NCBI GenBank assembly: GCA_964581565.1
Contig: CAZOOZ010000001.1
Span: 131,470-195,469 of the forward strand
Direction: 5' to 3'
Length of the DNA stretch: 64,000 nt
From: an uncultured Eubacteriaceae bacterium
GTDB taxonomy: Bacteria > Bacillota > Clostridia > Eubacteriales > UBA1433
Under the pieces are notes generated by a model, which was not told the origin of the DNA, did not search any database, and saw only the letters and a program-made list of their open reading frames with translations. The stretch's first letter is position 1, and each line of letters starts with the position of its first letter. Positions 43,241-64,000 of this stretch are shown one piece after another. The translations under genes were made by a program, and so were the position numbers.

Positions 43241-43483
43241 TTAAGAGATAATGCCTTCTTTTTTTAACAGTGATTTCACCGTATCAGTAGGCTGTGCACC
43301 ATAACTAAGCCATTTTAGTGCCTTTTCTTTATCGATCGCAAGATCTTTTTCTCCGACAGGTTTATAGTAGCCTATTTCGTCTATATTTCTGCCGTCTCTG
43401 GGTGCTCTAGCATCTGCAACAACAATCCTGTAAAAGGGTTTTTTCTTTGCGCCCATTCTTTTAAGTCTGATTTTAACTGCCAT
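43241..43483 (-). CDS. rpsP: 30S ribosomal protein S16
   Basis: [32 protein letters not shown]. Confidence 0.95.
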
Positions 43484-43524
43484 TTTTTCACCTCCTCGAG
43501 TTAGATATATATATTTAGAATTTA

Positions 43525-44841: not shown

Positions 44842-44855
44842 TGACATCGCCTCCT

Positions 44856-45200
44856 TTATTCATTGATGAATGCATCAAGTAACGTTTCAATATCTTTTAT
44901 GGTTTTTTTATCTTGCCCATCTGCACAAAGGGTAGACAAAAGAGCTTTTATTTCACTGATCGAGTTTTCACGCAGGGATTGTTTTTGCAGTAAATGAAGC
45001 ATATTTTCATATTTGTTCAACAATGCTTCTCCTTTTTTTATGGTGTCATGCGCCGCTTGCCTTGATATCAAATATAAATCGGCAATCTCGCTCAGCGAAT
45101 AGTCTTCTTCGTAATATAATTTCAAAATTTCGCTTTGCTTATCGGTCAACAATATGCCATAATGATCGAGAAGCATTGAAATGCGTACAAACTCTTTCAT
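44856..45200 (-). CDS. ylxM: YlxM/UPF0122 HTH protein (SRP-operon associated)
   Basis: LLDHYGILLTDKQSEILKLYYEEDYSLSEIA, a sigma-70 region-4-like HTH. Located upstream of ffh. Confidence 0.85.
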   Translation of the reverse strand: MKEFVRISMLLDHYGILLTDKQSEILKLYYEEDYSLSEIADLYLISRQAAHDTIKKGEALLNKYENMLHLLQKQSLRENSISEIKALLSTLCADGQDKKTIKDIETLLDAFINE

Positions 45201-45406
45201 AATCCACCATGATCGTAAAGTTTATTGGCTTTGTAAAGCAATATCACTTTACACCTAAGATATTTTAAATAAATATATTGAATTTGTCAATTATTATTTT
45301 GTAAAACATGTAATAAAATGAATCTGATTGATATAATCTAATATATATGTTAAAATGTTTTATCTATCTAAAATAAACAAGCACTTTAGCTATAGGGAGG
45401 TAAAAA

Positions 45407-46339: not shown

Positions 46340-46358
46340 ATAGAATGCAAACAAAATA

Positions 46359-46390
46359 AAAAGTGCAGTTATGACACTGCACTTTTTTAT
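46359..46390. terminator. Bidirectional terminator between corA and proS
   Basis: AAAAGTGCAG-TTATGACA-CTGCACTTTTTT. Confidence 0.8.
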
Positions 46391-47833: not shown

Positions 47834-47864
47834 GTAGCCTTCTCCTAAATTATTTGTCTATAGA

Positions 47865-49691: not shown

Positions 49692-49762
49692 AGGATCCTC
49701 TCTATACTTTTATACTTAGTAATTACTTTAAAGTATATTATAATCAAATTACAAAAAAAAGA

Positions 49763-49795
49763 AAATAAAAAAGACAGCAAGCTGTCTTTTTTTGC
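49763..49795. terminator. Hairpin terminator downstream of the Cys-rich protein gene
   Basis: AAGACAGC-AA-GCTGTCTT flanked by A-runs and T-runs on both sides. Confidence 0.75.
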
Positions 49796-49804
49796 AAAAT
49801 GATA

Positions 49805-50479
49805 TTAACATCTTTGTTGAGGCGGGAAAAATTCCGGGAAGGGAGTAACATTTTCATCCATGAATGTATCGCAGAATTCGATATCGCTTGGCATTTCATC
49901 ACATTCAGGCGGAATATCACAAAATCCATAAGTAGGAATTTTAAGTTGCACTTCACTGACAACTTTTACAATCAAGAATACGCCTATGCTCAGTTGTATC
50001 GCTTCTCTGTTGTCTACGAGATTGCTATAGCCCACTTCTGCAAAGCTTTCAACATAAGGCTCAAAACGGCCTTGTCTTAAATATTCAGCCGGCGCATAGA
50101 CAACAACTTCTATCGGGAAACGTATTTTATTATCGCATTGCATCGTTCCGTTTACAAGTAGTTTGGCGGGAAGTCTGAATATTTCTCCGTCACATTTTCT
50201 TTTTACGACTACGTAGACAGGTATTGCAGCGACAAATCTCATCAATGCATAATTTTCATTGATTTCTTGGAAAAACGGATAATCTCCCCAAGGTTCTACA
50301 TGTGCTTTGCCGAAGTCGGCATGTAAAAATTTATAATCATCGGCTGTACCCGTTGGAAAGTTTACGCAGAATAATGCTCGCTCCAAACAATCGCGCTTTG
50401 AACATGCGTCGTAAACTTTATTTACAATTAAACAATCAACTTCCATACAGCAATTGTTTACTTCAATTCTTTCATCCAA
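49805..50479 (-). CDS. Cysteine-rich hypothetical protein (224 aa, 12 Cys)
   Basis: Uninterrupted ORF with an N-terminal CC-x4-C-x9-C-x4-C-x6-C cluster and a C-terminal FCD..ECD..FCD...C cluster. It has no signal peptide and has its own terminator. Confidence 0.6.
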   Translation of the reverse strand: MDERIEVNNCCMEVDCLIVNKVYDACSKRDCLERALFCVNFPTGTADDYKFLHADFGKAHVEPWGDYPFFQEINENYALMRFVAAIPVYVVVKRKCDGEIFRLPAKLLVNGTMQCDNKIRFPIEVVVYAPAEYLRQGRFEPYVESFAEVGYSNLVDNREAIQLSIGVFLIVKVVSEVQLKIPTYGFCDIPPECDEMPSDIEFCDTFMDENVTPFPEFFPPQQRC

Positions 50480-50619
50480 ATGCTTAATCCTCCTTTATTT
50501 ATTTCTATGGTCATTATATGAGGCGGCAAATGAAGTGTGCGGGATATTTCTTTTGTTTGATAATTATTCAAATAATATAAAAAAATTCAGCATTTGCTGA
50601 ATTTCATATCTCTGTAAAT

Positions 50620-51171
50620 TTATTCTTGAATAAGCCTTTTTCTTAGTTTTACGAGTTCGATTTGATTTTCCAAAAGCCGCTCTTCCATCGATTCATATTC
50701 ATGTTTCATTTTTTCGTTTTCGGTACGTATTTCGGTAAGGCGTGTTTTATAGCCTGCTATGATTGCGTTAGAGCGATTTAATTCTTCGCTCACACGCTTG
50801 ATCTCTTCCTGATATTGTTCGATTTTTTTAAGCTCGTTCTGATTTTTTGTCAGATTCATATTTTCTATATCGATAACTCTTTCTTCTTTTTTTGTCTGAT
50901 AAGAGGAAGGAGCTGCGGCAGGTGTGCTCGCAAGTTTTTTCTGAAGATTTAGAAACGCTTTTTGTGTATCCAGAATTTCTTCACTTAAGTTCATGCATGT
51001 CAGGATAAGTGCCACATAGTTGCTTATGTAAGGATTTTTCTTTTTGGTATCATTTAAAATATATTCAAGATAGTTTACGGTATCTTCAATTTTTACGGTA
51101 TCATTTGTACTTGTCAGAAATGAATATTCTGAACCCAATATCTTCACGCTTACTTTGTTTTTCTTATCCAT
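50620..51171 (-). CDS. zapA: ZapA-like cell-division protein with extended C-terminal coiled coil
   Basis: The N-terminus VSVKILGSEYSFLTSTNDTVKIEDTVNYLE resembles the ZapA fold signature. The C-terminal ~90 aa are heptad-rich. Confidence 0.55.
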   Translation of the reverse strand: MDKKNKVSVKILGSEYSFLTSTNDTVKIEDTVNYLEYILNDTKKKNPYISNYVALILTCMNLSEEILDTQKAFLNLQKKLASTPAAAPSSYQTKKEERVIDIENMNLTKNQNELKKIEQYQEEIKRVSEELNRSNAIIAGYKTRLTEIRTENEKMKHEYESMEERLLENQIELVKLRKRLIQE

Positions 51172-51430
51172 ATACTAAAAATGATCCTTTCCTGCAAATT
51201 ATTACAAGATTACACGTATTCAAAATATATTATATATGAACAGCATTAAAATTACAAATAATTATTTTATGTTCAAAAGAAAATAAAGTAAAAATTTTAA
51301 GCTGCCAATCAGGATAAAAATATTAAATTTATTAAAGAATAGCAAGAGAACTATTGTTTTTATTTTGAAGAGCTTGTATTATTATACTACTGATAAAATT
51401 GAAGCATAAACGATATGTTTGAGGTGTAGA

Positions 51431-51787
51431 ATGGATTATATCAAAAAGGCTGAGTTAATAGCAAAATGGGCGGAAGAAAAAAATGCAGAAGATATTCATA
51501 TTATCGATGTTACGGCGTTGACGTCGATTACGGATGCGTTTGTGTTTTTAAGTGCTTCAAACGAACGCCAGTTGGATGCTATCACAGAGCATATTTACTT
51601 ACAGTCAAAAGAAAACGGAATGGATATACCCATCATTGAAGGCAAAAAAGAAAGCCGATGGATACTGCTTGATTTCGGCGATGTGGTCGTGCATGTTTTT
51701 CATAAAGAAGAGAGAAGTTATTACGATATTGAAAAGCTATGGGCTGACGGTAAATTTATACTTTTGCCCAGCAGAGATGAACACTAA
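51431..51787 (+). CDS. rsfS: Ribosome silencing factor RsfS (iojap-like)
   Basis: AEDIHIIDV ... TDAFVFLSASNERQLDAI ... WILLDFGDVVVHVF ... REYYDIEKLW-like motifs. I placed the start at the ATG at 51431, after GAGGTG. Confidence 0.88.
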   Translation: MDYIKKAELIAKWAEEKNAEDIHIIDVTALTSITDAFVFLSASNERQLDAITEHIYLQSKENGMDIPIIEGKKESRWILLDFGDVVVHVFHKEERSYYDIEKLWADGKFILLPSRDEH

Positions 51788-51920
51788 ATTAAAAATAAAA
51801 AGCCATAGTTAGTTAAGAGCGTTACCATGAGAAAACATGAAGAAACCTAGTAAAATCAATGTTTTTGGGCAGCGGATAACGGGGGCAGGAAACTAAAACT
51901 GAATATGTAAATGCCAAAAA

Positions 51921-51951
51921 GGGTGCTATCTATGAAGATAACGCCCTTTTT
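51921..51951 (+). terminator. Rho-independent terminator ~130 nt downstream of rsfS
   Basis: Stem GGGTGCTATCT / AGATAACGCCC (one mismatch, one G-U pair) followed by TTTTTG. Confidence 0.6.
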
Positions 51952-52106
51952 GTGTGTTTTCATATCAGCAATTTTTTTTGTGAAAGCTTAACTCTTCACG
52001 TAACAATCTTAAATGCTGACCAATTATCTTTAAGCAACCGCTTTCTTTTTGTTAATTACATTTTATTCGATAAAAGAATTATTAATTGTTGATATGATCC
52101 CTCTTC

Positions 52107-52135
52107 TTGACTAAATACATATACGGTGTTAAAAT
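52107..52135 (+). promoter_or_regulatory. Candidate promoter of the AraC-family gene
   Basis: TTGACT (52107-52112), a 17-nt spacer, then an extended -10 TGtTAAAAT (52127-52135). Confidence 0.5.
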
Positions 52136-52137
52136 TA

Positions 52138-52155
52138 AGTTAGCAAAGGCTAACT
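52138..52155 (+). promoter_or_regulatory. Palindromic box AGTTAGC-AAAG-GCTAACT (copy A)
   Basis: Perfect 7-bp arms located just downstream of the candidate -10 and 20 nt upstream of the AraC ATG. Copy B is at 53246. Confidence 0.55.
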
Positions 52156-52174
52156 GTAAAGCGGGGCTACTATT

Positions 52175-53161
52175 ATGGAGCAAGAGATTTCTATAAACTC
52201 AAAGGATGAATATTTCAGTGATCTCGTAAATCGCTATGGCTTCTCTTATGCGCAGGGTGAAAATACGGCAACCCTGATACCTCCAAAAGAGCTTGGTAGC
52301 GGATATATCAAAGCGGTTCAAGCAAGCGGCGATATTGACATCGGGATCATAGATCTTTTTCTGGCGCGGCCGATTATTTCATATTATGATAATTATTCAA
52401 ATACCTGTGAGGTGACATATTGTTTCAGCGGACATATTTTCTACTCGGAAACTGGTATCACAAAGGCAAATTTAAATAAAAATGAAATGGGAATATATGC
52501 ACTTCCATACAGTCGGGGAATGACCATGATTCCTTCGGGTAAGCGGGTATGTGTTGTGTCGGTGGAATCAAAGAAGCCCTTTCACGATCGACTGCCGTAT
52601 ACCGAGAAGTGCACACAATATGACGATACGTCAGTGAAGAAATTATTACACCAGTTGGTACAGCCGAAAAAGGCAAATGCAAAAATCCACAACTATTTCA
52701 GTCAAATTATAGAAAATAATATCGGTCGGGAATTAAAGAATACATACCTTGATTCGTTAGGCAAAGTCTTATTATCTGATCTGTGGCAGGAAAATATCAT
52801 ACTTCCTCTCACCGGAGGGAAACGCACGGTTTATTCCGGTTTTGAAAGAAACGCACTACTGGAAGCCAAAGAAATTTTATGTGACCATTATTCTTCTCCG
52901 CCAACTATTCCTGAGTTGGCCAAGATGGTTGCGCTCAACGAGCATAAGCTAAAATCTGGTTTCCGTGATATGTATGGCAAGAGCATATATGAATACGTCC
53001 GCAGTTTAAGGATGAAAAACGCAAGCCACCTGCTTGAGAATGTTGATTTAAGCATCAGCGAGATTGCGGGGATGGTGGGGTACGTGAACACCAGCCATTT
53101 TGCCCGCGCCTTCCGAAATGAATATGGCTTAAACCCCAGCGATTTTCGTCTTGGAGTGTAA
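52175..53161 (+). CDS. AraC-family transcriptional regulator (328 aa)
   Basis: C-terminal double HTH (TIPELAKMVALNEHKLKSGFRDMYG ... ISEIAGMVGYVNTSHFARAFRNEYGLNPSDFR) and a ~220-aa N-terminal putative ligand domain. Confidence 0.9.
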   Translation: MEQEISINSKDEYFSDLVNRYGFSYAQGENTATLIPPKELGSGYIKAVQASGDIDIGIIDLFLARPIISYYDNYSNTCEVTYCFSGHIFYSETGITKANLNKNEMGIYALPYSRGMTMIPSGKRVCVVSVESKKPFHDRLPYTEKCTQYDDTSVKKLLHQLVQPKKANAKIHNYFSQIIENNIGRELKNTYLDSLGKVLLSDLWQENIILPLTGGKRTVYSGFERNALLEAKEILCDHYSSPPTIPELAKMVALNEHKLKSGFRDMYGKSIYEYVRSLRMKNASHLLENVDLSISEIAGMVGYVNTSHFARAFRNEYGLNPSDFRLGV

Positions 53162-53204
53162 AAAATCCCGGTTGGAGCGGCGGGAACAACATCATAACTG
53201 GTAA

Positions 53205-53238
53205 AATAAGTGTTGATTTGTAGGCGCTTATTTTTTTT
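53205..53238 (+). terminator. Rho-independent terminator after the AraC gene
   Basis: Stem AATAAGTG / CGCTTATT followed by a T-run. Confidence 0.6.
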
Positions 53239-53245
53239 GAATTGA

Positions 53246-53263
53246 AGTTAGCAAAGACTAACT
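53246..53263 (+). promoter_or_regulatory. Palindromic box AGTTAG-CAAAGA-CTAACT (copy B)
   Basis: 6-bp arms, 21 nt upstream of the permease TTG start. It is embedded in a 34-nt stretch that is 29/34 identical to copy A by manual alignment. Confidence 0.55.
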
Positions 53264-53283
53264 ATATAGTGGGGGTACATATA

Positions 53284-54222
53284 TTGTGGAAATTCTTGTG
53301 TAGACGGGTAATTCATCTGATAACAGTCTTGATTGGTATATCGTTGTTATCTTTTGTCCTCGCCAATATATCGGCCGTTGATCCGGCAGAAGCTTATGCA
53401 AGGCGCGTTTCAAAAACAGCCAGTGAAGAAATGGTCGAGCAATACCGCGAAGAATTGGGATTTAATCAGTCGATACCAGAGCAGTATTGGAATTGGCTGA
53501 AGAATGTTGTACGCCTGGATTTTGGCAACTCTTATATCACCGGCCGGCCGGCCATGCAGGATTTGTTGAGCGTTATGCCTATGACACTTATCTTATCCGG
53601 CTTATCGTGTATCCTGATCATCGCCGGCGCTGTTCCGCTGGGGATACTGGCGGCGTTCAAAGAAGGAAAATGGGTTGATAAACTGGTTATGGGGTTGTCT
53701 TTTGTCTCAATCTCTGTGCCGGGATATTTTCTTGGTTTGCTGTGCCTGCTGGTTTTTGGCATATATTTAAGGCTGATGCCGATCGTGGGCCATAACCACC
53801 CGATAACATTATTATTTGCTTCGCTGGTTTTATCTTTTCCGATGGTCGGTGCACTTGCACGGATACTGCGTTCACTTTTACTGGAAAATCAAAGAAGTGA
53901 ATATGTTGTATATGCGAAGGCCAGAGGTATCGGCAGGCGTAGGGTGATGACCAACCATCTGCTGCGAAATGCTGCCCCTTCCTGTATTGTGATGTATGGC
54001 CAAAACATCGGGTATCTGCTTGCGGGCACAGCGATTGTCGAAACGATTTTTTCAATATCGGGGTTGGGACAGTATGCGTTGAACGCCGCAGTCAACCGGG
54101 ATTTTCCGGTCATCAACGCCTATATTGTCCTGATGGCGCTTTGTTTTGTGGTATGCAACGTTACGGCCGAAGTCTGCGGCCGGCTGCTCAATCCCAGCCT
54201 GAACCGGGAGGACCGTGCATGA
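53284..54222 (+). CDS. Peptide/nickel-family ABC importer permease (DppB/NikB-like)
   Basis: (M)WKFLCRRVIHLITVLIGISLLSFVL N-terminus typical of the family. TTG start 8 nt after GTGGGGG. 6 TM segments. Confidence 0.85.
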   Translation: MWKFLCRRVIHLITVLIGISLLSFVLANISAVDPAEAYARRVSKTASEEMVEQYREELGFNQSIPEQYWNWLKNVVRLDFGNSYITGRPAMQDLLSVMPMTLILSGLSCILIIAGAVPLGILAAFKEGKWVDKLVMGLSFVSISVPGYFLGLLCLLVFGIYLRLMPIVGHNHPITLLFASLVLSFPMVGALARILRSLLLENQRSEYVVYAKARGIGRRRVMTNHLLRNAAPSCIVMYGQNIGYLLAGTAIVETIFSISGLGQYALNAAVNRDFPVINAYIVLMALCFVVCNVTAEVCGRLLNPSLNREDRA

Positions 54223-55049
54223 GACGGCTAAAACATAATAAAAGTGTGATGGTGGGTCTTGGATTCATTACGATCATTGTATTGTGCGCTGTGTTTGCGG
54301 GTGAACTGTCCCCCAATGACCCTATGAAAATCAATATGAGCCTGCGTTTTACGGAACCCTCGCAGAGCTTTCCGTTGGGAGCCGACGCATACGGCAGATG
54401 CGTTTTTTCCCGTCTACTGTATGGGGCAAGGTATTCATTGGGGCTTGCTTTTTTGGTCATGATCGGGATCGTTATTACGACAATACCGTCTGGAATGGCC
54501 GCGGTGTATAAAGGTGGTTTTTTTGAGCGCATATTCCTGTGGCTGTGCGATATCAGCATGGCCCTTCCCCCCACCGTGTTGGTGCTTGCCATCATGGGCG
54601 TGATAGGAAACGGAATTGCCAATCTGGTGTTTAGTACGCTATTTTCCTATTGGGGTTGGTATGGGCGGATGGTACGCAGCTATACGCAGACTGAGCTGGC
54701 CAAAGGGTATGTCACATACGCCGTAACAGGTGGGGCTTCAGGCGTTTCCGTGTTGGTAAGGCAGGTACTTCCCAATATATTCCCCGGCCTGATTATACTA
54801 TTCGCGCTGGGAATCGGAGATACCATACTGATGATTTCAGGGTATTCCTTTTTGGGCATTGGCCTTCCGTCCGGCCTGCCGGAATGGGGCGCCATGCTAA
54901 ACGACGCCAAAAGCATGCTGTTGCAGGCACCGCAGTATGCCATTTATCCGGGTGTCTGTGTTTTTATCACCGTATGTGCTTTTAATTTGTTTGGAGAAGG
55001 AATGAGAAAGGCGCTCGCCGTAGGCGGCATGGGAGTAAATTATGAATAA
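54219..55049 (+). CDS. Peptide/nickel-family ABC importer permease (DppC/NikC-like)
   Basis: The ATGA overlap with the upstream stop gives the start MRRLKHNKSVMVGLGF. It contains the binding-protein-dependent transport signature region. Confidence 0.85.
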   Translation: MRRLKHNKSVMVGLGFITIIVLCAVFAGELSPNDPMKINMSLRFTEPSQSFPLGADAYGRCVFSRLLYGARYSLGLAFLVMIGIVITTIPSGMAAVYKGGFFERIFLWLCDISMALPPTVLVLAIMGVIGNGIANLVFSTLFSYWGWYGRMVRSYTQTELAKGYVTYAVTGGASGVSVLVRQVLPNIFPGLIILFALGIGDTILMISGYSFLGIGLPSGLPEWGAMLNDAKSMLLQAPQYAIYPGVCVFITVCAFNLFGEGMRKALAVGGMGVNYE

Positions 55050-55854
55050 AGACACTATTTTGGCTGTACGGGATTTATCCGTTCGTTATCTCAGTACCGG
55101 CGTCAATATCGAGAAAATGACTTTTGAGATCGGGCGTGGAAAGGTTTTGGGTTTGGTGGGGGAAAGCGGCAGCGGGAAAAGCACCGTATGCAACGCCATT
55201 CTCGGCCTGCTGGATTCCGCCGCAGTCCAGATATCCGGCAGTGTTCGACTGCAGGACAAAGAGATTTTACCGCTGTTTTGGGACGAACGCGAGAAGATTA
55301 ACGGCAAGGAGATCGGTGTCATTCTACAAAATTCCATGGCTGCCTTCAACCCCTGCATGCGAATACGGACCCATTTCATTGAAACGCTGTATACGCACTT
55401 GCTTTGCAGTAAACGTGATGCGACACTGTATGGGATCGAACTGTTGCGTAAGGTCGGTCTGCCCGATGGACAGAGAGTTATGCGCAGTTATCCGTATCAA
55501 TTGAGCGGTGGCATGCTCCAACGCGTGATGATTGCAATTGCAATATCACTGAATCCGGTGCTGATTATCGCGGACGAGCCGACGACGGCGCTTGATACCG
55601 GCAATCAGGCCATCATCTTGGAACTTCTTTCTTTCATAATGAAGGAATATAAGCCGGCCATGCTTTTGGTCTCCCATGATATGGATACTGTTACGGCTTT
55701 GGCGGACGATATTGCCGTGATGAAAGACGGCCGCGTTTTGGAACAGGGTACCAAAACAAAAATACTGCATGATCCGCAGGTTGGCTACACGAAGGAATTG
55801 CTGGCCTCGGCAGGTTTAATGGAGGAGACGGATTGCTTGAGATCAGGAATGTAA
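55042..55854 (+). CDS. ABC importer ATP-binding protein (DppD/NikD-like)
   Basis: Walker A GESGSGKST, signature LSGGMLQRVMIA, Walker B IIADEPTTALD. Confidence 0.88.
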   Translation: MNKDTILAVRDLSVRYLSTGVNIEKMTFEIGRGKVLGLVGESGSGKSTVCNAILGLLDSAAVQISGSVRLQDKEILPLFWDEREKINGKEIGVILQNSMAAFNPCMRIRTHFIETLYTHLLCSKRDATLYGIELLRKVGLPDGQRVMRSYPYQLSGGMLQRVMIAIAISLNPVLIIADEPTTALDTGNQAIILELLSFIMKEYKPAMLLVSHDMDTVTALADDIAVMKDGRVLEQGTKTKILHDPQVGYTKELLASAGLMEETDCLRSGM

Positions 55855-56606
55855 GAAAGAAATATGGCCATCAGGTTGCATTGGATGATGTATCGTTATC
55901 CATTGCACCCGGCGAAAGCGTATCCTTGATCGGGGAGAGCGGTAGCGGAAAAAGCACGCTTTCAAGGCTTATTCTCGCCCTTGAAAAGCCGTCGGGTGGC
56001 GTCATACTTTGGAACGGCAGAAACGTATCCGAGTTGCGTGGCAAAAAGTTGTACCGGGACATTCAGCCGGTCTTTCAGGACAACACGGGCTGTTTCAATC
56101 CCCGGCGCAGAGTAATGGACAGCCTTGACGAGCCGATGAGAAACTTACTTGGGATACCTGCAGCCGAGCGGGAAAAAAGAATTTGCAGCTTGCTTGAACG
56201 GGTTGGTCTCCCGGTGGATATTGCAAACCGCTATCCGCACGAGCTGTCCGGTGGGCAGCGCAGGCGCGTTTGCATCGCAAGAGCCATCTCCATCCATCCC
56301 GAGCTGGTAATTCTTGATGAAGCGGTTACCGGCCTGGACGCTACGGTCATGATGAAAATACTGGCCCTGCTGAAAGCGTTGCAGCGGGAGACCGGATGCG
56401 CTTATCTGTTTATCACCCACGATTTGCGCGCCGCCCTGTATATATCTGAAAAAATCGCGGTGATGAAAGACGGCCGCATCGTGGAAACCGCCGAGCATGT
56501 CTCTTCATTGTCTGCGTTTAAACATCCTTTTTCCAAACAGCTTATAGGAAACAGGAAATATATATTACTAAATCAGGAGGATTATAATGAAATACTACAT
56601 GAGTAA
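55833..56606 (+). CDS. ABC importer ATP-binding protein (DppF/NikE-like)
   Basis: TTG start 5 nt after GGAGGAG. Walker A GESGSGKST, signature LSGGQRRRVCIARA, Walker B VILDEAVTGLD. Confidence 0.88.
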   Translation: MLEIRNVRKKYGHQVALDDVSLSIAPGESVSLIGESGSGKSTLSRLILALEKPSGGVILWNGRNVSELRGKKLYRDIQPVFQDNTGCFNPRRRVMDSLDEPMRNLLGIPAAEREKRICSLLERVGLPVDIANRYPHELSGGQRRRVCIARAISIHPELVILDEAVTGLDATVMMKILALLKALQRETGCAYLFITHDLRAALYISEKIAVMKDGRIVETAEHVSSLSAFKHPFSKQLIGNRKYILLNQEDYNEILHE

Positions 56607-58188
56607 ACTAATTACACTGCTGCTTGCTGTCGTACTGGCTTTTTCGCTGGCGGCGTGCCAAAGCAGCAACGATGAAAGCGATATTTCAGAAATCATAATC
56701 GGCGAATCGGTGGACTTCTCCAGCTTCGATCCCATAGGTATCTATGACGGTCAGGGTTTTTACCATTATACCAAACTCGTCTATGAAACTCTCGTTGATT
56801 TTGAAGACGGAATTGCCGTACCTTCTCTTGCAGAGAGCTGGGAAAATGACGGAGATACATGGACATTTTATTTGAGAGAGGATGTGACATTCTCGGACGG
56901 CGAAGCGTTCAACGCGGAAGCGGTCAAACTCAACTTTGACACCATGCGGGAAAATATGATGGATTATATATCATACTATGGCGGCGTGTCCAGAATCACC
57001 GAAATAGAAATCGTTGACGAATACACGGTCGCTTTCCATTATGACGCGCCGTACTATGCTGTTTTACAGGACTTAAGCGCAGGGGCTTTTGGTATCATGT
57101 CGCCGAGTCTGTTTTCGGACGGCAATATCCCTTATAACAATGTGCTTACCGAAACGGCCGGAACGGGGCCGTATGTGATACAGGAAGGGAATTATACTGT
57201 TGGCGCTTCCTACAACTTTGTACGCAACGAAAATTACTATGGCAGTGCTGCCGGTCCAGATGGGTTCGCGGTTAAAATCATCACGGATGCCGACAGTCGT
57301 ATGATGGCGCTGCAATCCGGCGAAATCGACTTATTGTATGGTTCTTATCAGGTGACTTATGATATGTTTGACTATCTGGCCAAGCTGGATAACGTGCAGG
57401 CGGTGCAGTCCGAAACCACATATGCAACGCGCAACCTGCTGCTAAATACGACTTCCGAAATTCTGAGCGATCCGCTGGTGCGTCAGGCGATCCAACACGG
57501 CACCGACAAGGAACAGATCAACAGCACGGTACTGCACGGGATGGAGTCTGCTGCGGACACGCTGTTCCCTTCCACCCTGCCCTACTGCGACGTGGCGCAG
57601 GTCATCTATGACTTCGACCCGGACTTGGCCGCAAGCCTGCTGAGTGATGCCGGTTGGAGTGAGCTGAACGAAGAGGGTATCCGTATCAAAGACGGACAAA
57701 CGCTTTCCCTCGATGTGATTTATATGAGCGAACGCTCCACGGACGAGCAGATTCTCATGGCCTTCAAAGGGCAGATGGCTGAAATCGGAATACAAATTAA
57801 TATCAACGGCTATGAGGCAATGACATGGTGCGAAAAAGGGATGGCAGGCGAATTTGACATTACCGTGAACGATACCTACGGCTTCCCGCAAGATCCGCAA
57901 GTGTTCTTGGCTGCCATGCTGGATTATGCCGTGGATTATCCTGCACAGCAGGGCCTTGCGCAAAAGCCGGAAATCGATGCGCAGATCACGGTGATGCTGA
58001 ACACAACGGATGAAGCAGTGATCCAGCAAGCCTATACCTATGTGCTGACGACATTACAGGACGAGGCGGTGAATGTGCCGACGACAAATATCCGGGAAAT
58101 GGCCGTCTTCAATTCAGAGAAAATCAAAAGCGTACATTTTTCGGACGACCCAACCTGCTGCGATGTTTGCGGAATCGTACTAAAATAG
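56587..58188 (+). CDS. Family-5 (peptide/nickel/opine-type) substrate-binding lipoprotein
   Basis: Lipobox (FSLAACQSS), 533 aa, SBP_bac_5-like pattern (YTKLVYETLVDFEDG ... PSLAESWE ... DGDTWTFYLREDVTFSDGE). Confidence 0.85.
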   Translation: MKYYMSKLITLLLAVVLAFSLAACQSSNDESDISEIIIGESVDFSSFDPIGIYDGQGFYHYTKLVYETLVDFEDGIAVPSLAESWENDGDTWTFYLREDVTFSDGEAFNAEAVKLNFDTMRENMMDYISYYGGVSRITEIEIVDEYTVAFHYDAPYYAVLQDLSAGAFGIMSPSLFSDGNIPYNNVLTETAGTGPYVIQEGNYTVGASYNFVRNENYYGSAAGPDGFAVKIITDADSRMMALQSGEIDLLYGSYQVTYDMFDYLAKLDNVQAVQSETTYATRNLLLNTTSEILSDPLVRQAIQHGTDKEQINSTVLHGMESAADTLFPSTLPYCDVAQVIYDFDPDLAASLLSDAGWSELNEEGIRIKDGQTLSLDVIYMSERSTDEQILMAFKGQMAEIGIQININGYEAMTWCEKGMAGEFDITVNDTYGFPQDPQVFLAAMLDYAVDYPAQQGLAQKPEIDAQITVMLNTTDEAVIQQAYTYVLTTLQDEAVNVPTTNIREMAVFNSEKIKSVHFSDDPTCCDVCGIVLK

Positions 58189-58251
58189 AAATCCCGATCG
58201 GAGCGGTGAAAATCCGGTTCGGGGTGGTATAAAACCAAACATACCGTTAGA

Positions 58252-58283
58252 ATGGGCATTGAGGGATTGATGCCCATTTTTTT
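58252..58283 (+). terminator. Intra-locus rho-independent terminator immediately upstream of the exporter-fold ABC genes
   Basis: Perfect 8-bp stem ATGGGCAT / ATGCCCAT, then TTTTTTT, then AAGGAGG and the ATG at 58299. Confidence 0.7.
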
Positions 58284-58298
58284 AAGGAGGCAATCAGG

Positions 58299-60080
58299 AT
58301 GACTAAGCGAAATAGAAAAAAGGGGCTTTGGGCGATTATGGCCCCGGTAAGTCGCTATGTCAAAGCGGCCATAGGCCTTTCGGCATTCGGTGGGATAAGC
58401 GCACTTTTCGGGTATGTTTTTTTGGCGTACGTGCTTTCAATCGCCACAGGCGGAAGCATAGCATTTTTCGGACTGACATTGCGTTTTAACCAGGCGTTTT
58501 TGATACTGGCGCTGGTGGTGATCCTTTCCTTCGTGATTAAATATTATTCGACTGTCGTATCACATCTCGGCGCTTTTAAGCTTGAGGAGATATTAAGAAC
58601 GGATATCACCGCGCATCTGGCAAAGGTGCCGTTGGGATACGTCATTTCCACAGGCACAGGGGCATTTAAAAAAGTCCTGCTGGATGACGTCAAAAATCTT
58701 CACGCTTTCGTCGCGGATAGTACGCCGATGATCGGCAGGAGCATCGCCACACCTGCTGCGTCCCTCGCCGCCCTTATCATCATTGATTACAGGTTGGCGG
58801 TTATCGCTTTGAGCGTATTGCTGCTCGGCGCCGCAATCATGTATTTTGCTATGAAGGATGAAGCCAGCCGCAGGAGCAAATATGAGCAAAGCCAGTCGGA
58901 TATCAATAAAGCGGTGATCGAGTTTGTTCAGGCGATGCCGGTTGTCAGGACGTTTGACGACGGCACGACTTCTTTTAAGCGCTATAATAAAGCGCTTCAT
59001 CGATACCGTATCCATTTGAAAGCATGGATCGCGGCGACAAGCACACCTGCCAGAATCTCCATGATTATACTAAGCCCGATGCCGACACTGATTGCGGTCA
59101 CGATAGCGGGTATCTTTTTTGTGTCGGGCGGCAGTTTATCGTTTGCCGTTTTCATTGCCGCGTTGCTGGTCAGCACCGGCATGGCGGATGTTTTGATGCC
59201 GCTGATGTGGGCGAGCGAGTTCATCAAAATATCTCAGGCGGCAGCCGTCAGGATCCATGAAATTATGGATTTGCCCGAACTTAGAAGCGCTTCGGCTTTT
59301 CAAAAACCAACAAAGTTTGATGTCGTTTTTGACAACGTTTCATTTAAGTATAATGAAAAAGATCCATACGCGTTAAAGAATATCAGCTTCAGTGTCCTGC
59401 AAAACACGATCACAGCACTCGTGGGACCAAGCGGTGCCGGGAAAAGTACCGTTGCAAAGCTCATCCCCAGGTTCTGGGACGTGACGGAAGGCAGCATAAA
59501 AATAGGCGGTATAAATATAAGGAATATGGATGCGGCGGCGCTCATGGATACCGTTTCATTCGTTTTTCAGGATACGTTTTTATTCAATGATACGCTTGCG
59601 AACAATATCAAAATCGCCAATGACAATGTAACATATGAATCCATGATAGAGGCTGCAAAAGCAGCGCAGATTCATGATTTTATCATGACCTTGCCGGGCG
59701 GATACGAAACAATGGCCGGAGACAGAGGCACAAGCCTATCCGGCGGCCAGAAGCAAAGGATTACGATTGCGAGAGCCATTTTAAGAAACGCCCCGATTAT
59801 TGTCCTTGATGAAGCGACGGCCTTTACTGACCCCGAGAACGAAGAAGAGATCATCAAAGCGCTGTCCAACCTGATGAAAAACAAAACAGTCATCGTTATC
59901 GCGCACAGGCTTTCGACGATTAGGAACGTAGAGCAAATCGTGGTTTTTGATCAGGGAGAGATATCAGAGATAGGTCAGCATGATGAGCTGTTAAAAAAAC
60001 GGGGGATATACGAGAAACTGTGGCGCAATTTTGACAAAGCGCAGAATTGGGATTTACACCATATGGGAGATATAAAATGA
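58299..60080 (+). CDS. ABC half-transporter, fused TMD-NBD (type I exporter fold), subunit 1
   Basis: 6 TM segments plus an NBD with Walker A GPSGAGKST, signature LSGGQKQRITIARA and Walker B IVLDEATAFTD. Confidence 0.88.
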   Translation: MTKRNRKKGLWAIMAPVSRYVKAAIGLSAFGGISALFGYVFLAYVLSIATGGSIAFFGLTLRFNQAFLILALVVILSFVIKYYSTVVSHLGAFKLEEILRTDITAHLAKVPLGYVISTGTGAFKKVLLDDVKNLHAFVADSTPMIGRSIATPAASLAALIIIDYRLAVIALSVLLLGAAIMYFAMKDEASRRSKYEQSQSDINKAVIEFVQAMPVVRTFDDGTTSFKRYNKALHRYRIHLKAWIAATSTPARISMIILSPMPTLIAVTIAGIFFVSGGSLSFAVFIAALLVSTGMADVLMPLMWASEFIKISQAAAVRIHEIMDLPELRSASAFQKPTKFDVVFDNVSFKYNEKDPYALKNISFSVLQNTITALVGPSGAGKSTVAKLIPRFWDVTEGSIKIGGINIRNMDAAALMDTVSFVFQDTFLFNDTLANNIKIANDNVTYESMIEAAKAAQIHDFIMTLPGGYETMAGDRGTSLSGGQKQRITIARAILRNAPIIVLDEATAFTDPENEEEIIKALSNLMKNKTVIVIAHRLSTIRNVEQIVVFDQGEISEIGQHDELLKKRGIYEKLWRNFDKAQNWDLHHMGDIK

Positions 60081-61846
60081 ATAAACTTAAGTTTACATCT
60101 GTTTTCAACATTTACAAATTGACGCTGGAACTGGCGGGAGAAAAAGCGGACAGCTTCAAAAGAAGCATGATCTGGTTTACAATTGCTTTTGTGCTGCAGG
60201 GGTTTGCATTCGGGTTGTTTTATCCGCTTTTAACACGCCTGTTTGCCGAATCTGTCGTGATGATGGATATATGGCCTTATCTTGGGCTGATGGTTCTTTT
60301 CAGCACTATATCTTCTGCGGCAAAATGGAAAGGGTATGATTTTGATTATACGGGCAACATCGTCGATATCACGCACGACTTGAGAACAAAGCTGGGCGCC
60401 AGCCTGAGAAGGATGCCTCTAGAGAAATTATCCGACTATAAAACGGGCGAGCTGAACGCCATATTTTCAAGCAATGTGGATGATTCCGTATTACACATGG
60501 GCTCGGTTGCCGCCATGCTATTGGAGCTGGTGATCGTTCCGGTTATAATCGCTGCCGTGACTTTTTTCGTCGATTGGCGGCTAGCCCTTTTAATGCTGCT
60601 GCTTTTTCCGCTGGCCATACCGATCTGCCGCTGGATGAGGAAGCTTGCCCTTGATGAGAAGACAGAGCTGGCCCTTGCCAATGCGGCGCTTGAATCGGGA
60701 TTTATCGAGTATATTCAGGGGCTGCCGGTGCTAAGAGCCGTCAACAAAACGGGCATCAATGCGCAGAACCTGCAGGGGTCTATCAAGTATGTCAGGTCGG
60801 TGCAAAAGCAGGGCCTTTATAAGCAGCAGTTTCCATTTGTTTTAATGGGTGTTTTGATGGAGGCAATACTCCTCATCATTTTATTGGTTGGAGCTTGGTT
60901 TGTTGGAGGCCATACTCTGGCACTCGTGACGCTGGGAGCCGGTATTGTGATTGTGGCCAGGCTGACAGAGCCTTTATCATTATTTTTGGGCGTTGTCACG
61001 CTGTTTGATTTGATGGATTCCTCGTTCAAAAGAATCAAGTCGGTATTGAAAACAGATCCGCTTGAAACCGACAAGCCCATTCAAACGCCCGAAAGCTTTG
61101 ATATAGAGTTCAGCCATGTGGATTTTACATACGCTGGACAGGATATAAAAGCGATCAACGATATCAGCTTTTATATACCCAATCGAACGATGACGGCTAT
61201 CGTCGGGCATTCGGGTTGCGGCAAAACAACGCTAACACGGCTAATGATGAGATATGCGGATGTTCAAAAGGGAAATATCAGAATCGGGGGAGTTAATATA
61301 AAGAATATGAATCCTGATGATTTGATGAAAAATATATCTGTGGTGTTTCAGGATGTATATTTATTTGACGATACGATTTTGAACAATATCAAAATGGCAA
61401 ACCCGAATGCAACGGATAAAGAAGTGGAAACAGCGGTGAACTCAGCCCACTGCCATGAGTTTATATCTAGATTGCCAGATGGATACGATACAAAGGTGGG
61501 CGATATCGGAGGAAGCTTATCCGGCGGGGAAAGGCAAAGAATCAGCATTGCGAGGGCTATTTTAAAAAATGCGCCTATTGTGATTCTGGATGAACCGACC
61601 GCAGCGCTGGATACTGAAAGCGAGGTGGCGGTACAACATGCGATCGATAAGCTTGTGAAGGATAAGACCGTTATTGTAATCGCCCATCGGTTATCGACGA
61701 TTGCTGGAGCGGATCATATATTGGTCGTGGACAACGGCGTCATCATCGAAAGCGGGAAACATGGCGAGCTGGTGGCAAAAAGAGGGCAATACTTTAATAT
61801 GTGGTCTGCACAACAACGAGTAAAAGAATGGCATATAGATTCATAA
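60077..61846 (+). CDS. ABC half-transporter, fused TMD-NBD (type I exporter fold), subunit 2
   Basis: The ATGA overlap gives the start MNKLKFTSVF. The NBD has Walker A GHSGCGKTT, signature LSGGERQRISIARA and Walker B VILDEPTAALD. Confidence 0.88.
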   Translation: MNKLKFTSVFNIYKLTLELAGEKADSFKRSMIWFTIAFVLQGFAFGLFYPLLTRLFAESVVMMDIWPYLGLMVLFSTISSAAKWKGYDFDYTGNIVDITHDLRTKLGASLRRMPLEKLSDYKTGELNAIFSSNVDDSVLHMGSVAAMLLELVIVPVIIAAVTFFVDWRLALLMLLLFPLAIPICRWMRKLALDEKTELALANAALESGFIEYIQGLPVLRAVNKTGINAQNLQGSIKYVRSVQKQGLYKQQFPFVLMGVLMEAILLIILLVGAWFVGGHTLALVTLGAGIVIVARLTEPLSLFLGVVTLFDLMDSSFKRIKSVLKTDPLETDKPIQTPESFDIEFSHVDFTYAGQDIKAINDISFYIPNRTMTAIVGHSGCGKTTLTRLMMRYADVQKGNIRIGGVNIKNMNPDDLMKNISVVFQDVYLFDDTILNNIKMANPNATDKEVETAVNSAHCHEFISRLPDGYDTKVGDIGGSLSGGERQRISIARAILKNAPIVILDEPTAALDTESEVAVQHAIDKLVKDKTVIVIAHRLSTIAGADHILVVDNGVIIESGKHGELVAKRGQYFNMWSAQQRVKEWHIDS

Positions 61847-61935
61847 GCCTATGGATACATTTTTACGACGTTACAGCAAACCAATTTATGTGATTTGCGC
61901 AAAAACAGCCTGAAATCAATCTTATCTCTTGCGTA

Positions 61936-62478
61936 TTATGCGTAGATCTTGATTCCTGTTGAACTCATAACGTCTAACGCGTTTTTATGCATAGCTTCGT
62001 CAAAGCTGGCACATGCTGAGGAATCGACCATAATGCTGCTGTCAAAAAAGCGCGACTGTAAAATAAATGCGTTGGCAATCACGCATATATTGGTCACGAC
62101 TCCGCATAGTTCGATTTCTTCTATGGACGATTTTTTCTGCACGGATTCAATAAAATCAGGTAGCATTGCTGTGCCGTAGGTGTTTTTGTTGATGAAATGA
62201 ATATGTTTATTCTCCAAGTTTTCAAACTCTCTCATTTTGCCGTATAAATGCCAGCCTTCTTCGTTCAGTTGACAGTGGAGGGGAAATAGAGAGCCTTCTT
62301 TGCTGTCTTTATAGCTGTCGTCATGTGTATCCATCGTAAAAAAAACTTCATAGCCGTTTTGCAGATATGTTTTAATTTTATCATAAATTGTGTCTTCTAT
62401 GTTTTTTGCACCTTCAAATCCGAGGGAACCTGTCACGAAATCATTTTGGTAATCGACAACAATCAATATTTTACACAT
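61936..62478 (-). CDS. Isochorismatase-family cysteine hydrolase (nicotinamidase-like)
   Basis: ILIVVDYQNDF and ELCGVVTNICV (catalytic Cys) motifs. I placed the start at the ATG at 62478, after AGGAGAA. Confidence 0.8.
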   Translation of the reverse strand: MCKILIVVDYQNDFVTGSLGFEGAKNIEDTIYDKIKTYLQNGYEVFFTMDTHDDSYKDSKEGSLFPLHCQLNEEGWHLYGKMREFENLENKHIHFINKNTYGTAMLPDFIESVQKKSSIEEIELCGVVTNICVIANAFILQSRFFDSSIMVDSSACASFDEAMHKNALDVMSSTGIKIYA

Positions 62479-62507
62479 GATGTTCTCCTGTTTTTTAAAA
62501 TTATTTA

Positions 62508-63515
62508 TCACACCGCTAGCGAATCGGCGTTCTTGGGTTTAGTATCGGCGAATGAATGAAAAAATATTTTATATAAATTGACAGCACTTACCGTTACTTC
62601 GTTTGTGTTTATAAAATTTGCATAGTGATAGAGCATTATTTGAGAAGTGAATAGGTAGCGGATGATTTTAGTCAATAAATAAATTGGGATAAGGAAGGCG
62701 ATACCTATTATGCTTACACTTAAAAGCAAAGCAATAAGGATGATACACGCAATGCTGATCAAATTGCCGAAAATGAAAACAGATAAATTTGTCTTATAGT
62801 TGTTTTTTATTAAAACACATGAATACTTTAGCGCACCTATGATGCTGATATCATATAGCAGTGCCAGCATTTGCGTAAGCTGAAAAAAAGAGGCGAGAGC
62901 GATAGTTATAAGCAGGCCTATGATACTGACAGAGCAAAAAACAATTAAACTTTTACGGCTGATTAAAAGGCTGTCGCCAAGCAGTTTTATCGACATATCC
63001 TTAAAGTATATATATGGTTGGGCAGAAAGATATGCAATATAAATTGTAAGTAAAATGAGCATCGCAAGTAAAATAAATACACTCAAACTGACCAGAATTG
63101 TTTTGGGAAGCCGTTTGAATGAAAAACGCATAATTTCATTATAAGACAACAGGTGATGATCGTTGTAATAATTAAAGGACAGTATTGTAAAGATGTTTCT
63201 TATGAATAGCATAGAACATGAAATAACACAATAAATGACTGCGCAAAAAAACAAAGTCACAGCAATCCATGATCTTGGGATATCTTCCAAAGGCTTCGTA
63301 CTAAGCAAGGTGAGCAGATATTTTAACATTGGGATAAACCATGAAAATAACATCACAAAAATAAGAGTCGTAACGATCGAGGTCAGCACTCCCAACAGAA
63401 TGAATATTTCTTTTCTTTGTTTTTTTATGATGGCAAAGCTGTTTTTAAAAAATAATTTTATAAGTGCAAAGGATGAAGACGAATTATTTTTATGTAAGGT
63501 CAGTAATGTATTCAT
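62508..63515 (-). CDS. Polytopic membrane protein, unknown function
   Basis: About 7-8 hydrophobic segments and no recognisable motif. I placed the start at the ATG at 63515, 8 nt after AGAGGGG. Confidence 0.55.
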   Translation of the reverse strand: MNTLLTLHKNNSSSSFALIKLFFKNSFAIIKKQRKEIFILLGVLTSIVTTLIFVMLFSWFIPMLKYLLTLLSTKPLEDIPRSWIAVTLFFCAVIYCVISCSMLFIRNIFTILSFNYYNDHHLLSYNEIMRFSFKRLPKTILVSLSVFILLAMLILLTIYIAYLSAQPYIYFKDMSIKLLGDSLLISRKSLIVFCSVSIIGLLITIALASFFQLTQMLALLYDISIIGALKYSCVLIKNNYKTNLSVFIFGNLISIACIILIALLLSVSIIGIAFLIPIYLLTKIIRYLFTSQIMLYHYANFINTNEVTVSAVNLYKIFFHSFADTKPKNADSLAV

Positions 63516-63642
63516 TTTAAATGCCCCTCTGAAAAACATGCAGTAAAATATATAAATAAGTATATCACAAAATGTATAGTTTAAATGAATGAAAAATTTT
63601 ATTTAATAAATTTTTATGAATACATATTGTTTAAAATATATT

Positions 63643-64000
63643 TTAATAATAATAACGCCTTGCGAAATTGATGCAGGAATCCACATGTGAAATTGCGGCG
63701 TTTTGTGCCACTTCCGGAATACCTGATTCTATGCTGTTGCAGATTGCCAGATGCTGATATGCAATGGATGAAATAGATTTTATTTGAGGGGCTTTATCCA
63801 AATACAGCCTTGTTTTGGCAGAATGATAGCGCACGAGTTTCTCAATGTCTTCATACATTTTAATTAAAAATTTGTTATTTGAAGAAAGTATGATCATCTT
63901 ATGAAAGGGCACATCCAGCTGATCGAGTGCATCGAAATTTTTAGTATGAAACAATGTTTCGAATTTGCTCGCATAGTCTTTGAGACGCTTTATATCGATC
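63643..64000 (-). CDS. GntR/FadR-family regulator, C-terminal FCD-like domain; N-terminus lies beyond the window
   Basis: The frame stays open to nt 64000 (... IDIKRLKDYASKFETLFHTKNFDALDQLDVPFHKMII ...). The helical ligand-binding domain pattern includes conserved His residues. Confidence 0.6.
   Translation of the reverse strand, partial: IDIKRLKDYASKFETLFHTKNFDALDQLDVPFHKMIILSSNNKFLIKMYEDIEKLVRYHSAKTRLYLDKAPQIKSISSIAYQHLAICNSIESGIPEVAQNAAISHVDSCINFARRYYY

Follow-up and report, generated by a model that had tools for sequence, protein, structure and literature searches.

Between rsfS and an isochorismatase-family gene, in a 64,000-nt stretch of DNA from an uncultured Eubacteriaceae bacterium (contig CAZOOZ010000001.1; the whole stretch is called the window below), lies a block of eight genes for an AraC regulator, a NikBCDE-A-type importer and a heterodimeric ATP-binding cassette (ABC) pair. 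The locus raises the question of whether this block is a foreign island and, if so, what it would bring into the cell and under what control. The original prediction had seen in it an island of higher G+C that recalls metallophore loci, carries no biosynthetic genes and might serve uptake or piracy only. In our reading, to which we give a probability of about 0.65, the block is a horizontally acquired, iron-repressed and AraC-activated metallophore module for uptake only, most likely of a ferric siderophore, and would work like YbtA/YbtPQ. The metallophore interpretation is supported by the island status of the block, by its matches to the YbtPQ subunits, by a relative of its regulator in a siderophore cluster and by the lack of biosynthetic genes. 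The genes of the cassette are listed here in window coordinates (TMD, transmembrane domain; NBD, nucleotide-binding domain).

52175-53161, + strand: AraC-family regulator of 328 aa (Pfam HTH_18), cupin-like N-terminal barrel and C-terminal double helix-turn-helix
53284-54222, + strand: NikB-like permease, TTG start (NCBIfam NikB 289 bits, cut-off 447; Opp2B 297; gene call in L001)
54219-55049, + strand: NikC-like permease (NCBIfam NikC 256 bits, cut-off 358)
55042-55854, + strand: NikD-like ATPase, short (NikD 266 bits, cut-off 319; CntF/CntD about 255)
55833-56606, + strand: NikE-like ATPase (NikE 270 bits, cut-off 333)
56587-58188, + strand: family-5 substrate-binding lipoprotein of the NikA/CntA clade with a divergent pocket (SBP_bac_5; NikA 367.8 bits, cut-off 393)
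58299-60080, + strand: YbtP-like TMD-NBD half-transporter (PDB 6p6i_A, 508 bits; 43% identity to Klebsiella YbtP)
60077-61846, + strand: YbtQ-like TMD-NBD half-transporter (PDB 6p6i_B, 496 bits; 41.8% identity to annotated ybtQ)

Gene calls and family matches confirmed the predicted content, namely an AraC regulator, an importer in BCDE-A order with a family-5 substrate-binding protein (SBP) and a TMD-NBD pair. In family profile searches the island genes matched regulator or transporter families only.

The island, its borders and its host

The cassette differs in composition from its surroundings. Its G+C content is 0.474, compared to 0.369 for the remaining window, and in 1-kb windows the values run at 0.45-0.515 within 53-61 kb and at 0.31-0.42 in the flanks. 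The mean G+C at third codon positions (GC3) is 0.539 for the eight cassette genes and 0.363 for the 48 other genes of the window (Mann-Whitney p = 5.6e-9), with araC intermediate at 0.44. The G+C step noticed at first by eye was therefore real in sliding windows and in GC3, although its absolute figures had been set about 8-10 points too high.

We placed the host through its prolyl-tRNA synthetase (ProRS), encoded 4 kb away, which is 87% identical to a protein labelled ‘MAG: Eubacteriaceae bacterium’ (MAG, metagenome-assembled genome) and 72-76% identical to Alkalibaculum and Acetobacterium proteins; this marker places the host among Eubacteriaceae-like anaerobes. The closest sister lineage (loci L036 and L037, from samples with accession numbers of the same series) has a ProRS that is 93% identical to that of the window, and its gene order is PFOR, GntR, a 335-aa protein, isochorismatase, an 84-aa GNAT acetyltransferase, RsfS and ZapA, followed further on by ProRS and CorA. 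The sister loci aligned with the window by blastn only at 36438-51810 (84%) and 61913-64000 (79%); between these flanks, 257 nt in the sister stand against 10,102 nt in the window. The empty site of the sister holds an intact 84-aa GNAT gene (5766-6020 in L036/L037) that shares an intact bidirectional terminator with rsfS. In the window, the right break of the island falls at the position of the GNAT start codon and the left break inside the stem of the native rsfS terminator, which the insertion has broken. As judged from this alignment, the island took the place of the GNAT gene precisely, from start codon to terminator.

51811-61912, no strand: inserted island of 10,102 nt, in place of the 255-nt GNAT gene of the sister
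51915-51952, + strand: strong hairpin followed by a U-run, terminator-like, in the non-coding left arm (-20.1 kcal/mol, z = -6.0)

The borders obtained from the sister comparison, 51811 and 61912, are nearly those first proposed (51800 and 61900). The proposal that terminators frame the block was right for the hairpin in the left arm and wrong otherwise, the native rsfS terminator being broken and no clear terminator following the last cassette gene. The naming of the flanks was likewise half correct: rsfS stands on one side, and the gene on the other, which had been called nicotinamidase-like, matches nicotinamidase with only 22.8 bits and belongs to the isochorismatase family instead. The arms unique to the island measure 293 nt on the left and 67 nt on the right. 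Some contigs end within the left arm, near the strong hairpin, at exactly 51900 in three different samples and at 51989 in another, and one contig starts at 52041; strain heterogeneity or an assembly problem could have caused these breaks. Independent contigs from several samples cross both junctions, which excludes an assembly chimera.

The empty site was detected through the ProRS-based search, and a further relative (ProRS 87%) also lacks the block beside rsfS. No empty site was found among contigs with identical RsfS or isochorismatase proteins; all such contigs of this population that reach far enough carry the block, and the island is therefore fixed in the population. We found no integrase or recombinase gene in the block among the gene calls and family matches, no tRNA anywhere in the 64-kb window and no repeats at the borders of the block, in keeping with the earlier statement that all three were missing. 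The block is consequently one of deviant composition, missing from close relatives, that lacks the classical island hallmarks of an integrase, a tRNA target and flanking direct repeats. An ordinary composition, or a block syntenic in all relatives, would have spoken for a native origin; we found a deviating GC3 and a sister lineage that lacks the block despite otherwise conserved synteny. Composition and gene order together indicate that this Eubacteriaceae-like lineage acquired the block horizontally.

The transporters, the regulator and their relatives

The match of the first ABC protein to YbtP (6p6i chain A, E = 3e-151) compares with 303 bits to YbtQ and 283 bits to IrtA, and that of the second to YbtQ (chain B, E = 8.5e-148) with 274 bits to YbtP. 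With annotated Klebsiella and Salmonella YbtP/YbtQ as references, the identity to Klebsiella YbtP extends over 578 aa and that to annotated YbtQ over the full length, so the analogy to YbtPQ drawn in the original prediction holds subunit for subunit. Both proteins have ABC_membrane and ABC_tran domains, their genes overlap by 4 nt, and the canonical motifs are found in both NBDs (Walker A/B, signature and H-loop are visible when the YbtP-like protein is aligned with YbtP). The closest annotated relatives, at 45-47% identity, belong to an Acaryochloris plasmid cluster and a Rhodovulum plasmid locus. The former has the order AraC, TonB-dependent receptor, major facilitator superfamily (MFS) protein, ABC, ABC, with iron-siderophore uptake genes around it, and the second ABC protein of the window is 46% identical to its partner there; in the latter, the ABC relatives adjoin non-ribosomal peptide synthetase (NRPS) and ferric-enterobactin-type genes. 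By analogy with YbtPQ, the pair most likely imports a metal-chelate complex without a binding protein.

The AlphaFold model of the regulator (pLDDT 89.9) consists of a cupin-like barrel and a double helix-turn-helix domain and resembles ToxT, Rns and CuxR in Foldseek, which fits the earlier description of an AraC protein with an N-terminal ligand domain beside transporters. The AraC protein of the Acaryochloris cluster aligns with it over the full length (25% identity over 305 aa, E = 3e-23), and this relative, in a cyanobacterial uptake cluster of AraC, TonB receptor, MFS and YbtPQ-like genes, supports the proposed link of the regulator to siderophore loci. With YbtA, only the DNA-binding domain was aligned by BLASTP (36% identity), and in a profile alignment of 227 columns the same domain drives the score.

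The importer belongs to the Nik/Cnt branch. Its NikB-, C-, D- and E-like genes (53284-56606) have overlapping stops and starts, and its ATPases lack the oligo_HPY extension, yet it falls below every curated cut-off, NikA to NikE all being missed, and the SBP reaches 287 bits with the CntA model, for which the cut-off is 800. Family profile matches gave no cntKLM-type opine synthesis genes in the island of the window. The solved structures closest to the SBP are Brucella NikA (4oer, the best match), E. coli NikA and then S. aureus CntA, and its lipobox reads LAAC. In E. coli NikA, the residues that hold Ni-(His)2 are Arg97, Arg137 and His416. At these positions the SBP of the window has D, G and A (R97→D, R137→G, H416→A), and the cassette-associated SBP clade has Asp/Glu, a small or hydrophobic residue, and Gly/Ala, respectively, together with a strictly conserved NDTYGFPQDP motif. 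Since the NikA ligand residues are replaced, the SBP is no nickel-binding protein of the canonical type; its ligand could plausibly be fully chelated and either neutral or cationic. The earlier designation ‘peptide/nickel-type’ is accordingly correct for the branch and the BCDE-A order and incorrect if taken to mean a canonical nickel system. Uptake of cobalamin or heme was considered and rejected: there is no B12 riboswitch by Rfam, the pocket is acidic and not basic, and the regulator is of a type that suits siderophore systems.

The cassette recurs in other genomes. Its nearest sampled relative, on the long metagenomic contig L007, is about 85% identical in nucleotide sequence, with homology that begins at the araC promoter (52104) and goes no further than the last stop codon (61845); cassette and flanks of L007 are both at about 50% G+C. 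The same eight genes stand in the same order between unrelated flanks in L007, in L008 (another long metagenomic contig, where the cassette adjoins ParB/TnpV genes and is interrupted by a group II intron), in Syntrophobotulus glycolicus (L009), an Anaerovoracaceae MAG (L010), a Bacillota MAG (L012) and Desulforamulus ruminis (L042), and in the Chloroflexota member Anaerolineaceae bacterium oral taxon 439 (L033). A Syntrophomonas MAG (L011) has the same transporter order on a contig that stops before the araC position; araC adjoins the transporter genes in all 11 loci that have it in view, L011 being the twelfth.

Two further loci, L043 (10001-14616) and L044 (10001-14699), have a three-gene form with AraC and the ABC pair and no Nik-like importer, and they keep the same boxes and nested terminator-promoter as the full cassette (see below). 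The AraC protein of L043 is 72% identical to that of the window, yet its ABC pair is only about 35% identical, from which we conclude that the modules have recombined. Because regulator and pair are found alone, they appear to form the core, to which the Nik-like importer was added as a module; for the same reason the pair is argued to be the primary transporter, able to act without an SBP.

The claim that biosynthetic genes are absent was borne out in the 64-kb window and beside the cassettes of the loci examined, with one possible exception. In Desulforamulus the cassette is flanked by a cysteine-synthase-like (cysK-like) gene and by genes for an Sfp-type phosphopantetheinyl transferase, an alpha/beta hydrolase and an O-methyltransferase, neighbours that hint at a chelator biosynthesis cluster nearby, past the end of the locus. 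A metagenome scan with an alignment of the AraC sensor domain gave only one short extra locus and a genome scan with the SBP gave three loci, the sampled distribution being thin. We found no description of the cassette in the literature, of which the open-access texts were searchable.

Some cassette copies are disrupted by mobile elements. In L008, a group II intron reverse transcriptase gene (8283-9530) separates nikE from the SBP gene. The nikD gene of L010 contains an insertion sequence (6930-8606) with AAGTTAGAC in its terminal inverted repeats; the likeness of AAGTTAGAC to the palindrome described below is probably coincidental. Another family-5 SBP gene and another ABC pair directly precede the L012 cassette (44-4822), which points to tandem paralogous systems, possibly for different chelators.

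Predicted promoters, boxes and a candidate palindromic operator

The intergenic regions of the cassette contain two kinds of conserved element, together with the promoters and terminators among which they lie.

52107-52135, + strand: predicted araC promoter, TTGACT, 17 nt, TG-n-TAAAAT (extended -10; 10/12 with TG)
52138-52155, no strand: palindromic operator 1, AGTTAG-N6-CTAACT, directly after the araC -10 and over the expected transcription start
53143-53181, + strand: two direct-repeat boxes with a 21-nt period, candidate AraC sites of the importer promoter
53199-53238, + strand: extended -10 TGGTAAAAT (53199-53207), overlapping the 5' arm of the araC terminator hairpin
53246-53263, no strand: palindromic operator 2, AGTTAG-N6-CTAACT, in the importer (nikB) leader, about 20 nt before the start codon
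58192-58227, + strand: two direct-repeat boxes, TCCCGATCGGAGCGG and TCCGGTTCGGGGTGG, 21 nt apart, candidate AraC sites of the ABC-pair promoter
58248-58283, + strand: -10-like TAGAAT (58248-58253), overlapping the importer-operon terminator hairpin

The araC-nikB intergenic region can be aligned with the SBP-ABC one, and both with their counterparts in other loci (11 regions aligned). Of the importer boxes, box A is degenerate and overlaps the 3' end of araC, and box B is TCCCGGTTGGAGCGG; the box consensus is TCCSGNTYGGRGYGG. This pattern occurs three times in the 64-kb window compared to 0.06 expected, always in these two intergenic regions. Box B and the -10 are 35-36 nt apart in the window, in IGR2 (intergenic region 2) and in L042. 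The boxes would accordingly lie at about -69 to -33, the classic position for an activator of the AraC family.

The two activated promoters are predicted to be nested in terminators. The araC terminator hairpin (53203-53234, with a U-run) has a folding energy of -10.4 kcal/mol (z = -3.3) and that of the importer operon (58249-58280, with a U-run) one of -17.1 kcal/mol (z = -4.3). The TGn-TAAAAT extended -10 of the importer promoter is kept in six of seven cassettes, and the TAGAAT/terminator element at the ABC promoter in L007, L008, L010, L043 and L044. As the layout suggests, read-through transcripts would end at the hairpin, and those begun at the nested promoter would be missing its 5' arm. 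The Desulforamulus cassette has the same box spacing with TATAAT as its -10 and no involvement of a hairpin, and we therefore read the elements as promoters. A riboswitch in the two intergenic regions was considered and rejected: there was no Rfam match at E <= 10, the conservation is sequence-specific and not covarying, and the Desulforamulus geometry is free of hairpins. The conserved elements of these regions are read as protein-binding DNA boxes and terminators.

The second kind of element is the palindrome. A strong araC promoter equivalent to that of the window is kept in L007, L008, L009, L010, L012 and L043, and the palindrome at the araC operator occupies the same position in seven other cassettes. 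Two copies are present in the window compared to 0.11 expected, and a 55-nt repeat (D1) ties operator 2 to the araC leader. The half-sites GTTAG/CTAAC are invariant, and the 6-nt spacer is variable, in cassettes whose AraC shares only about 39-44% identity with that of the window. We rejected the palindrome as a purely 5' RNA hairpin, since the stems are invariant and the spacer extends the helix inconsistently, which favours a DNA operator.

The palindrome also follows strong promoters of genes near the cassette in three relatives: a DUF2325-DUF3793-flavodoxin operon beside the L007 cassette (two copies, 15566-15634), a Fe3+-type ABC importer beside the L008 cassette (16011-16026) and a second AraC gene in the Anaerolineaceae locus L033 (1726-1741). 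These copies suggest that the palindrome marks a wider regulon of a repressor that is probably iron-responsive; flavodoxin is induced under iron limitation. The importer promoter of Desulforamulus (L042 6375-6436) contains a canonical Fur box (16/19), placed after box B and ahead of the -10; it is the sole match in 21.6 kb, with none in shuffles, and carries the G and C by which Fur sites differ from those of PerR. Given the iron-linked neighbours of the palindrome, this Fur box and the behaviour of flavodoxin, the palindrome is most likely bound by an iron-responsive repressor. The L007 cassette is followed (17158-21369) by a DUF454 gene, a further heterodimeric ABC pair and a gene for a DtxR-family (Fe_dep_repress) regulator, in this order, a stretch that, taken with the flavodoxin operon, resembles a larger region concerned with iron. 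Members of the DtxR family recognize TTAG/CTAA-type half-sites with varied spacing (PMC10783522). The repressor is possibly of the DtxR type, for which the DtxR-family gene near the L007 cassette is a lead only.

The analysis establishes which genes are present, that the block was acquired, that the cassette is conserved across lineages, and where the motifs occur, with what geometry and how far above chance. The course of events set out next is inferred, from the proteins that would bind the motifs to the signal, the transported substrate and the direction in which the ABC pair works. When iron or another metal is sufficient, a repressor on the GTTAG-N6-CTAAC palindromes would keep the strong sigma-70-type araC promoter and the importer silent. 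Limitation would lift the repression and allow the AraC protein to accumulate. The AraC protein would bind a ligand in its cupin-like domain, by analogy with YbtA/PchR the imported metal-chelate complex, and in the ligand-bound form would occupy the two 21-nt-spaced direct repeats that overlap the -35 region of two weak promoters. The importer operon of NikBCDE-A type and the YbtPQ-like ABC pair would both be turned on in this way, each activated promoter being nested in the terminator of the upstream unit and the units thereby insulated from read-through. The SBP, with acidic residues replacing Ni-His ligand residues of NikA, would capture an externally made chelate for the type-I importer. 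The YbtPQ-like pair, the putative core of the system because AraC and the pair exist alone elsewhere, would most likely import that chelate complex, or one related to it, with no need of a binding protein.

Weighing the readings

Several observations weigh against an iron-repressed, uptake-only module of this kind. Two complete transporters are present in one cassette, with no evident need for both. Reliance on ferrous iron is the general expectation for strict anaerobes. Two lineages can be told apart among the ABC pairs of related cassettes, with 35-39% mutual identity, so by sequence a similarity at the YbtPQ level is no property of the whole cassette family; even in the second lineage, the best PDB match among half-transporters is YbtP or YbtQ. 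The -10 hexamers overlap the A-tracts of terminators, and their conservation could be partly structural. The palindrome hairpin could also act in RNA. The search for Fur, Zur and NikR boxes that the original prediction had called for found none in the promoters of the window, where counts were at chance level (Fur with <= 3 mismatches in the three promoter regions; NikR as the E. coli-type GTATGA-N16-TCATAC only); a different conserved palindrome stands there instead. The link to iron comes from genes beside the cassette in two relatives and from a single Fur box in a distant one. Finally, in the equibactin system, the one Gram-positive yersiniabactin-like system tested, equibactin-dependent iron import did not need the YbtPQ-like pair EqbKL (PMC3672683).

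The last point is also in favour of a cycle of import and export, in which the Nik-like system would bring the chelate in and the ABC pair would expel emptied or excess chelator, avoiding toxicity and allowing reuse. The exporter fold of the pair (Pfam ABC_membrane) and the activator boxes shared by both units, which would be induced together, agree with such a cycle, as does the replacement of the pair by one of a distant lineage while the rest was kept, as if generic efflux sufficed. The identities of 42-43% to YbtPQ are, however, specific for the subunits of an importer, and L043 and L044 have AraC and the pair alone, with no other importer or biosynthesis nearby, which is hard to square with a role in export only. 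We regard the cycle as doubtful, though it deserves serious consideration.

The same architecture could instead serve nickel/cobalt (or zinc), as a nickelophore or broad-spectrum metallophore system in an acetogen-like host with a high demand for Ni and Co. The best family matches of the importer are NikA-E and CntA/D/F, the host has Acetobacterium/Alkalibaculum-like relatives, the window is without a Fur box, and YbtPQ also imports non-iron complexes of yersiniabactin. This assignment is nevertheless unlikely when set against the Nik models that all stay below their cut-offs, the replacement of NikA R97, R137 and H416 by D, G and A across the clade, and the lack of a NikR- or Zur-type site. 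The block also had no Rfam match, hence no known metal- or cobalamin-sensing riboswitch, the Desulforamulus promoter carries a Fur-type box, and the palindrome is common to flavodoxin and Fe3+-importer genes.

A system unrelated to metals, with AraC-controlled uptake of a peptide-like compound and ABC efflux of a toxic compound or antibiotic, is very improbable. Peptides are common cargo of family-5 SBP importers, heterodimeric type-IV ABC pairs of Firmicutes are often drug exporters, and AraC-family regulators govern many efflux and catabolic systems, many such families matching here at low scores. The importer, however, finds its best matches in the Nik/Cnt branch and not in Opp/Dpp, with ATPases that lack oligo_HPY, the ABC pair scores about 500 bits to YbtP/YbtQ compared to 283 or less for other half-transporters, the relative of the regulator lies within a siderophore cluster, and the Desulforamulus cassette has its Fur box. 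That the block is ancestral, was deleted in the sister and owes its higher G+C to gene-specific constraints hardly merits belief: only one close sister lineage with conserved synteny was compared and every contig with identical flanking proteins carries the block, but the 18-point GC3 shift affects all eight genes, the cassette occurs from promoter to stop in unrelated contexts of other families and another phylum, sometimes beside mobile-element genes, the site in the sister holds an intact gene and an intact bidirectional terminator, and the further relative also lacks the block.

If the preferred reading of an acquired metallophore uptake module holds, a broader suggestion can be made, though only tentatively: the cassette may be an undescribed, cross-phylum mobile module for ‘metallophore piracy’ among strict anaerobes, with an obligatory transporter pair, a novel iron-type operator and terminator-nested promoters. 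An AraC and YbtPQ-type core would in this case have recruited a NikA-clade importer whose acidic pocket is without the histidine that coordinates nickel. Piracy of the chelators of other organisms is what we infer from the uptake-only content, and the two transporters may be two entry routes, or entry and export of emptied chelator. In that event, chelator-mediated metal acquisition and cheating would be widespread in anoxic communities, where they are usually thought unimportant. AraC/YbtPQ-like siderophore acquisition is known mainly from aerobic or facultative pathogens, and here a compact version, free of biosynthesis genes, moves between strictly anaerobic Firmicutes and Chloroflexota. 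Its spread points to competition for chelated metals and use of foreign chelators in anoxic, sulfidic habitats. The cross-phylum spread among strict anaerobes, the modularity of core and importer and the two conserved regulatory elements go beyond what had been predicted. The locus offers a regulator with candidate boxes, a candidate metal-responsive operator and an SBP clade with a distinct pocket, and, as a naturally occurring combination of a type-I importer and an ABC system of exporter fold, it bears on the role of YbtPQ-like pairs in single-membrane bacteria.

Among known systems, the ybtA-ybtPQ (ybtX) unit of the Yersinia high-pathogenicity island is similar in having an AraC regulator beside a heterodimer of YbtP/YbtQ type (43%/41.8% identity), with a DNA-binding domain 36% identical in YbtA, and in the likely two-tier control, which under Fur in Yersinia and by a metal-type repressor here would be combined with an AraC activator on repeats near the -35. 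In contrast to the Yersinia unit, the cassette lacks yersiniabactin biosynthesis genes, an outer-membrane receptor and YbtX, is carried by single-membrane strict anaerobes, has a NikBCDE-A-type SBP importer between the regulator and the ABC pair, and in the window has a repressor site that is no Fur box. The NikABCDE and CntABCDF (staphylopine) systems share the five components of a type-I importer, the family-5 SBP and the short ATPases and give the best family-level matches. The cassette importer, however, misses every cut-off, has the ligand residues of NikA replaced, is ordered BCDE-A and lacks a NikR site, and by these defining features of sequence it is not a member of the NikABCDE or Cnt family.

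The equibactin locus eqbA-N on ICESe2 of Streptococcus equi is comparable as a Gram-positive, horizontally acquired, iron-regulated and yersiniabactin-like system, with a dedicated importer and a YbtPQ-like fused pair (PMC3672683). It differs in that it carries NRPS biosynthesis genes, lies on a conjugative element and is controlled by a DtxR-like repressor and not by an AraC activator, and its EqbKL are only 28-30% identical to YbtPQ. In the uptake-only cluster on pREB1 of Acaryochloris marina, the ABC pair is 46-47% identical, AraC aligns over the full length, and the immediate unit has no biosynthetic genes and is surrounded by iron/siderophore uptake genes; that cluster is of the Gram-negative type, has an outer-membrane receptor and an MFS protein where the cassette has the SBP importer, and is known from annotation. 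By homology and context, the cassette as a whole would work like a ybtA-ybtPQ unit under Fur and resembles the uptake-only cluster of Acaryochloris.

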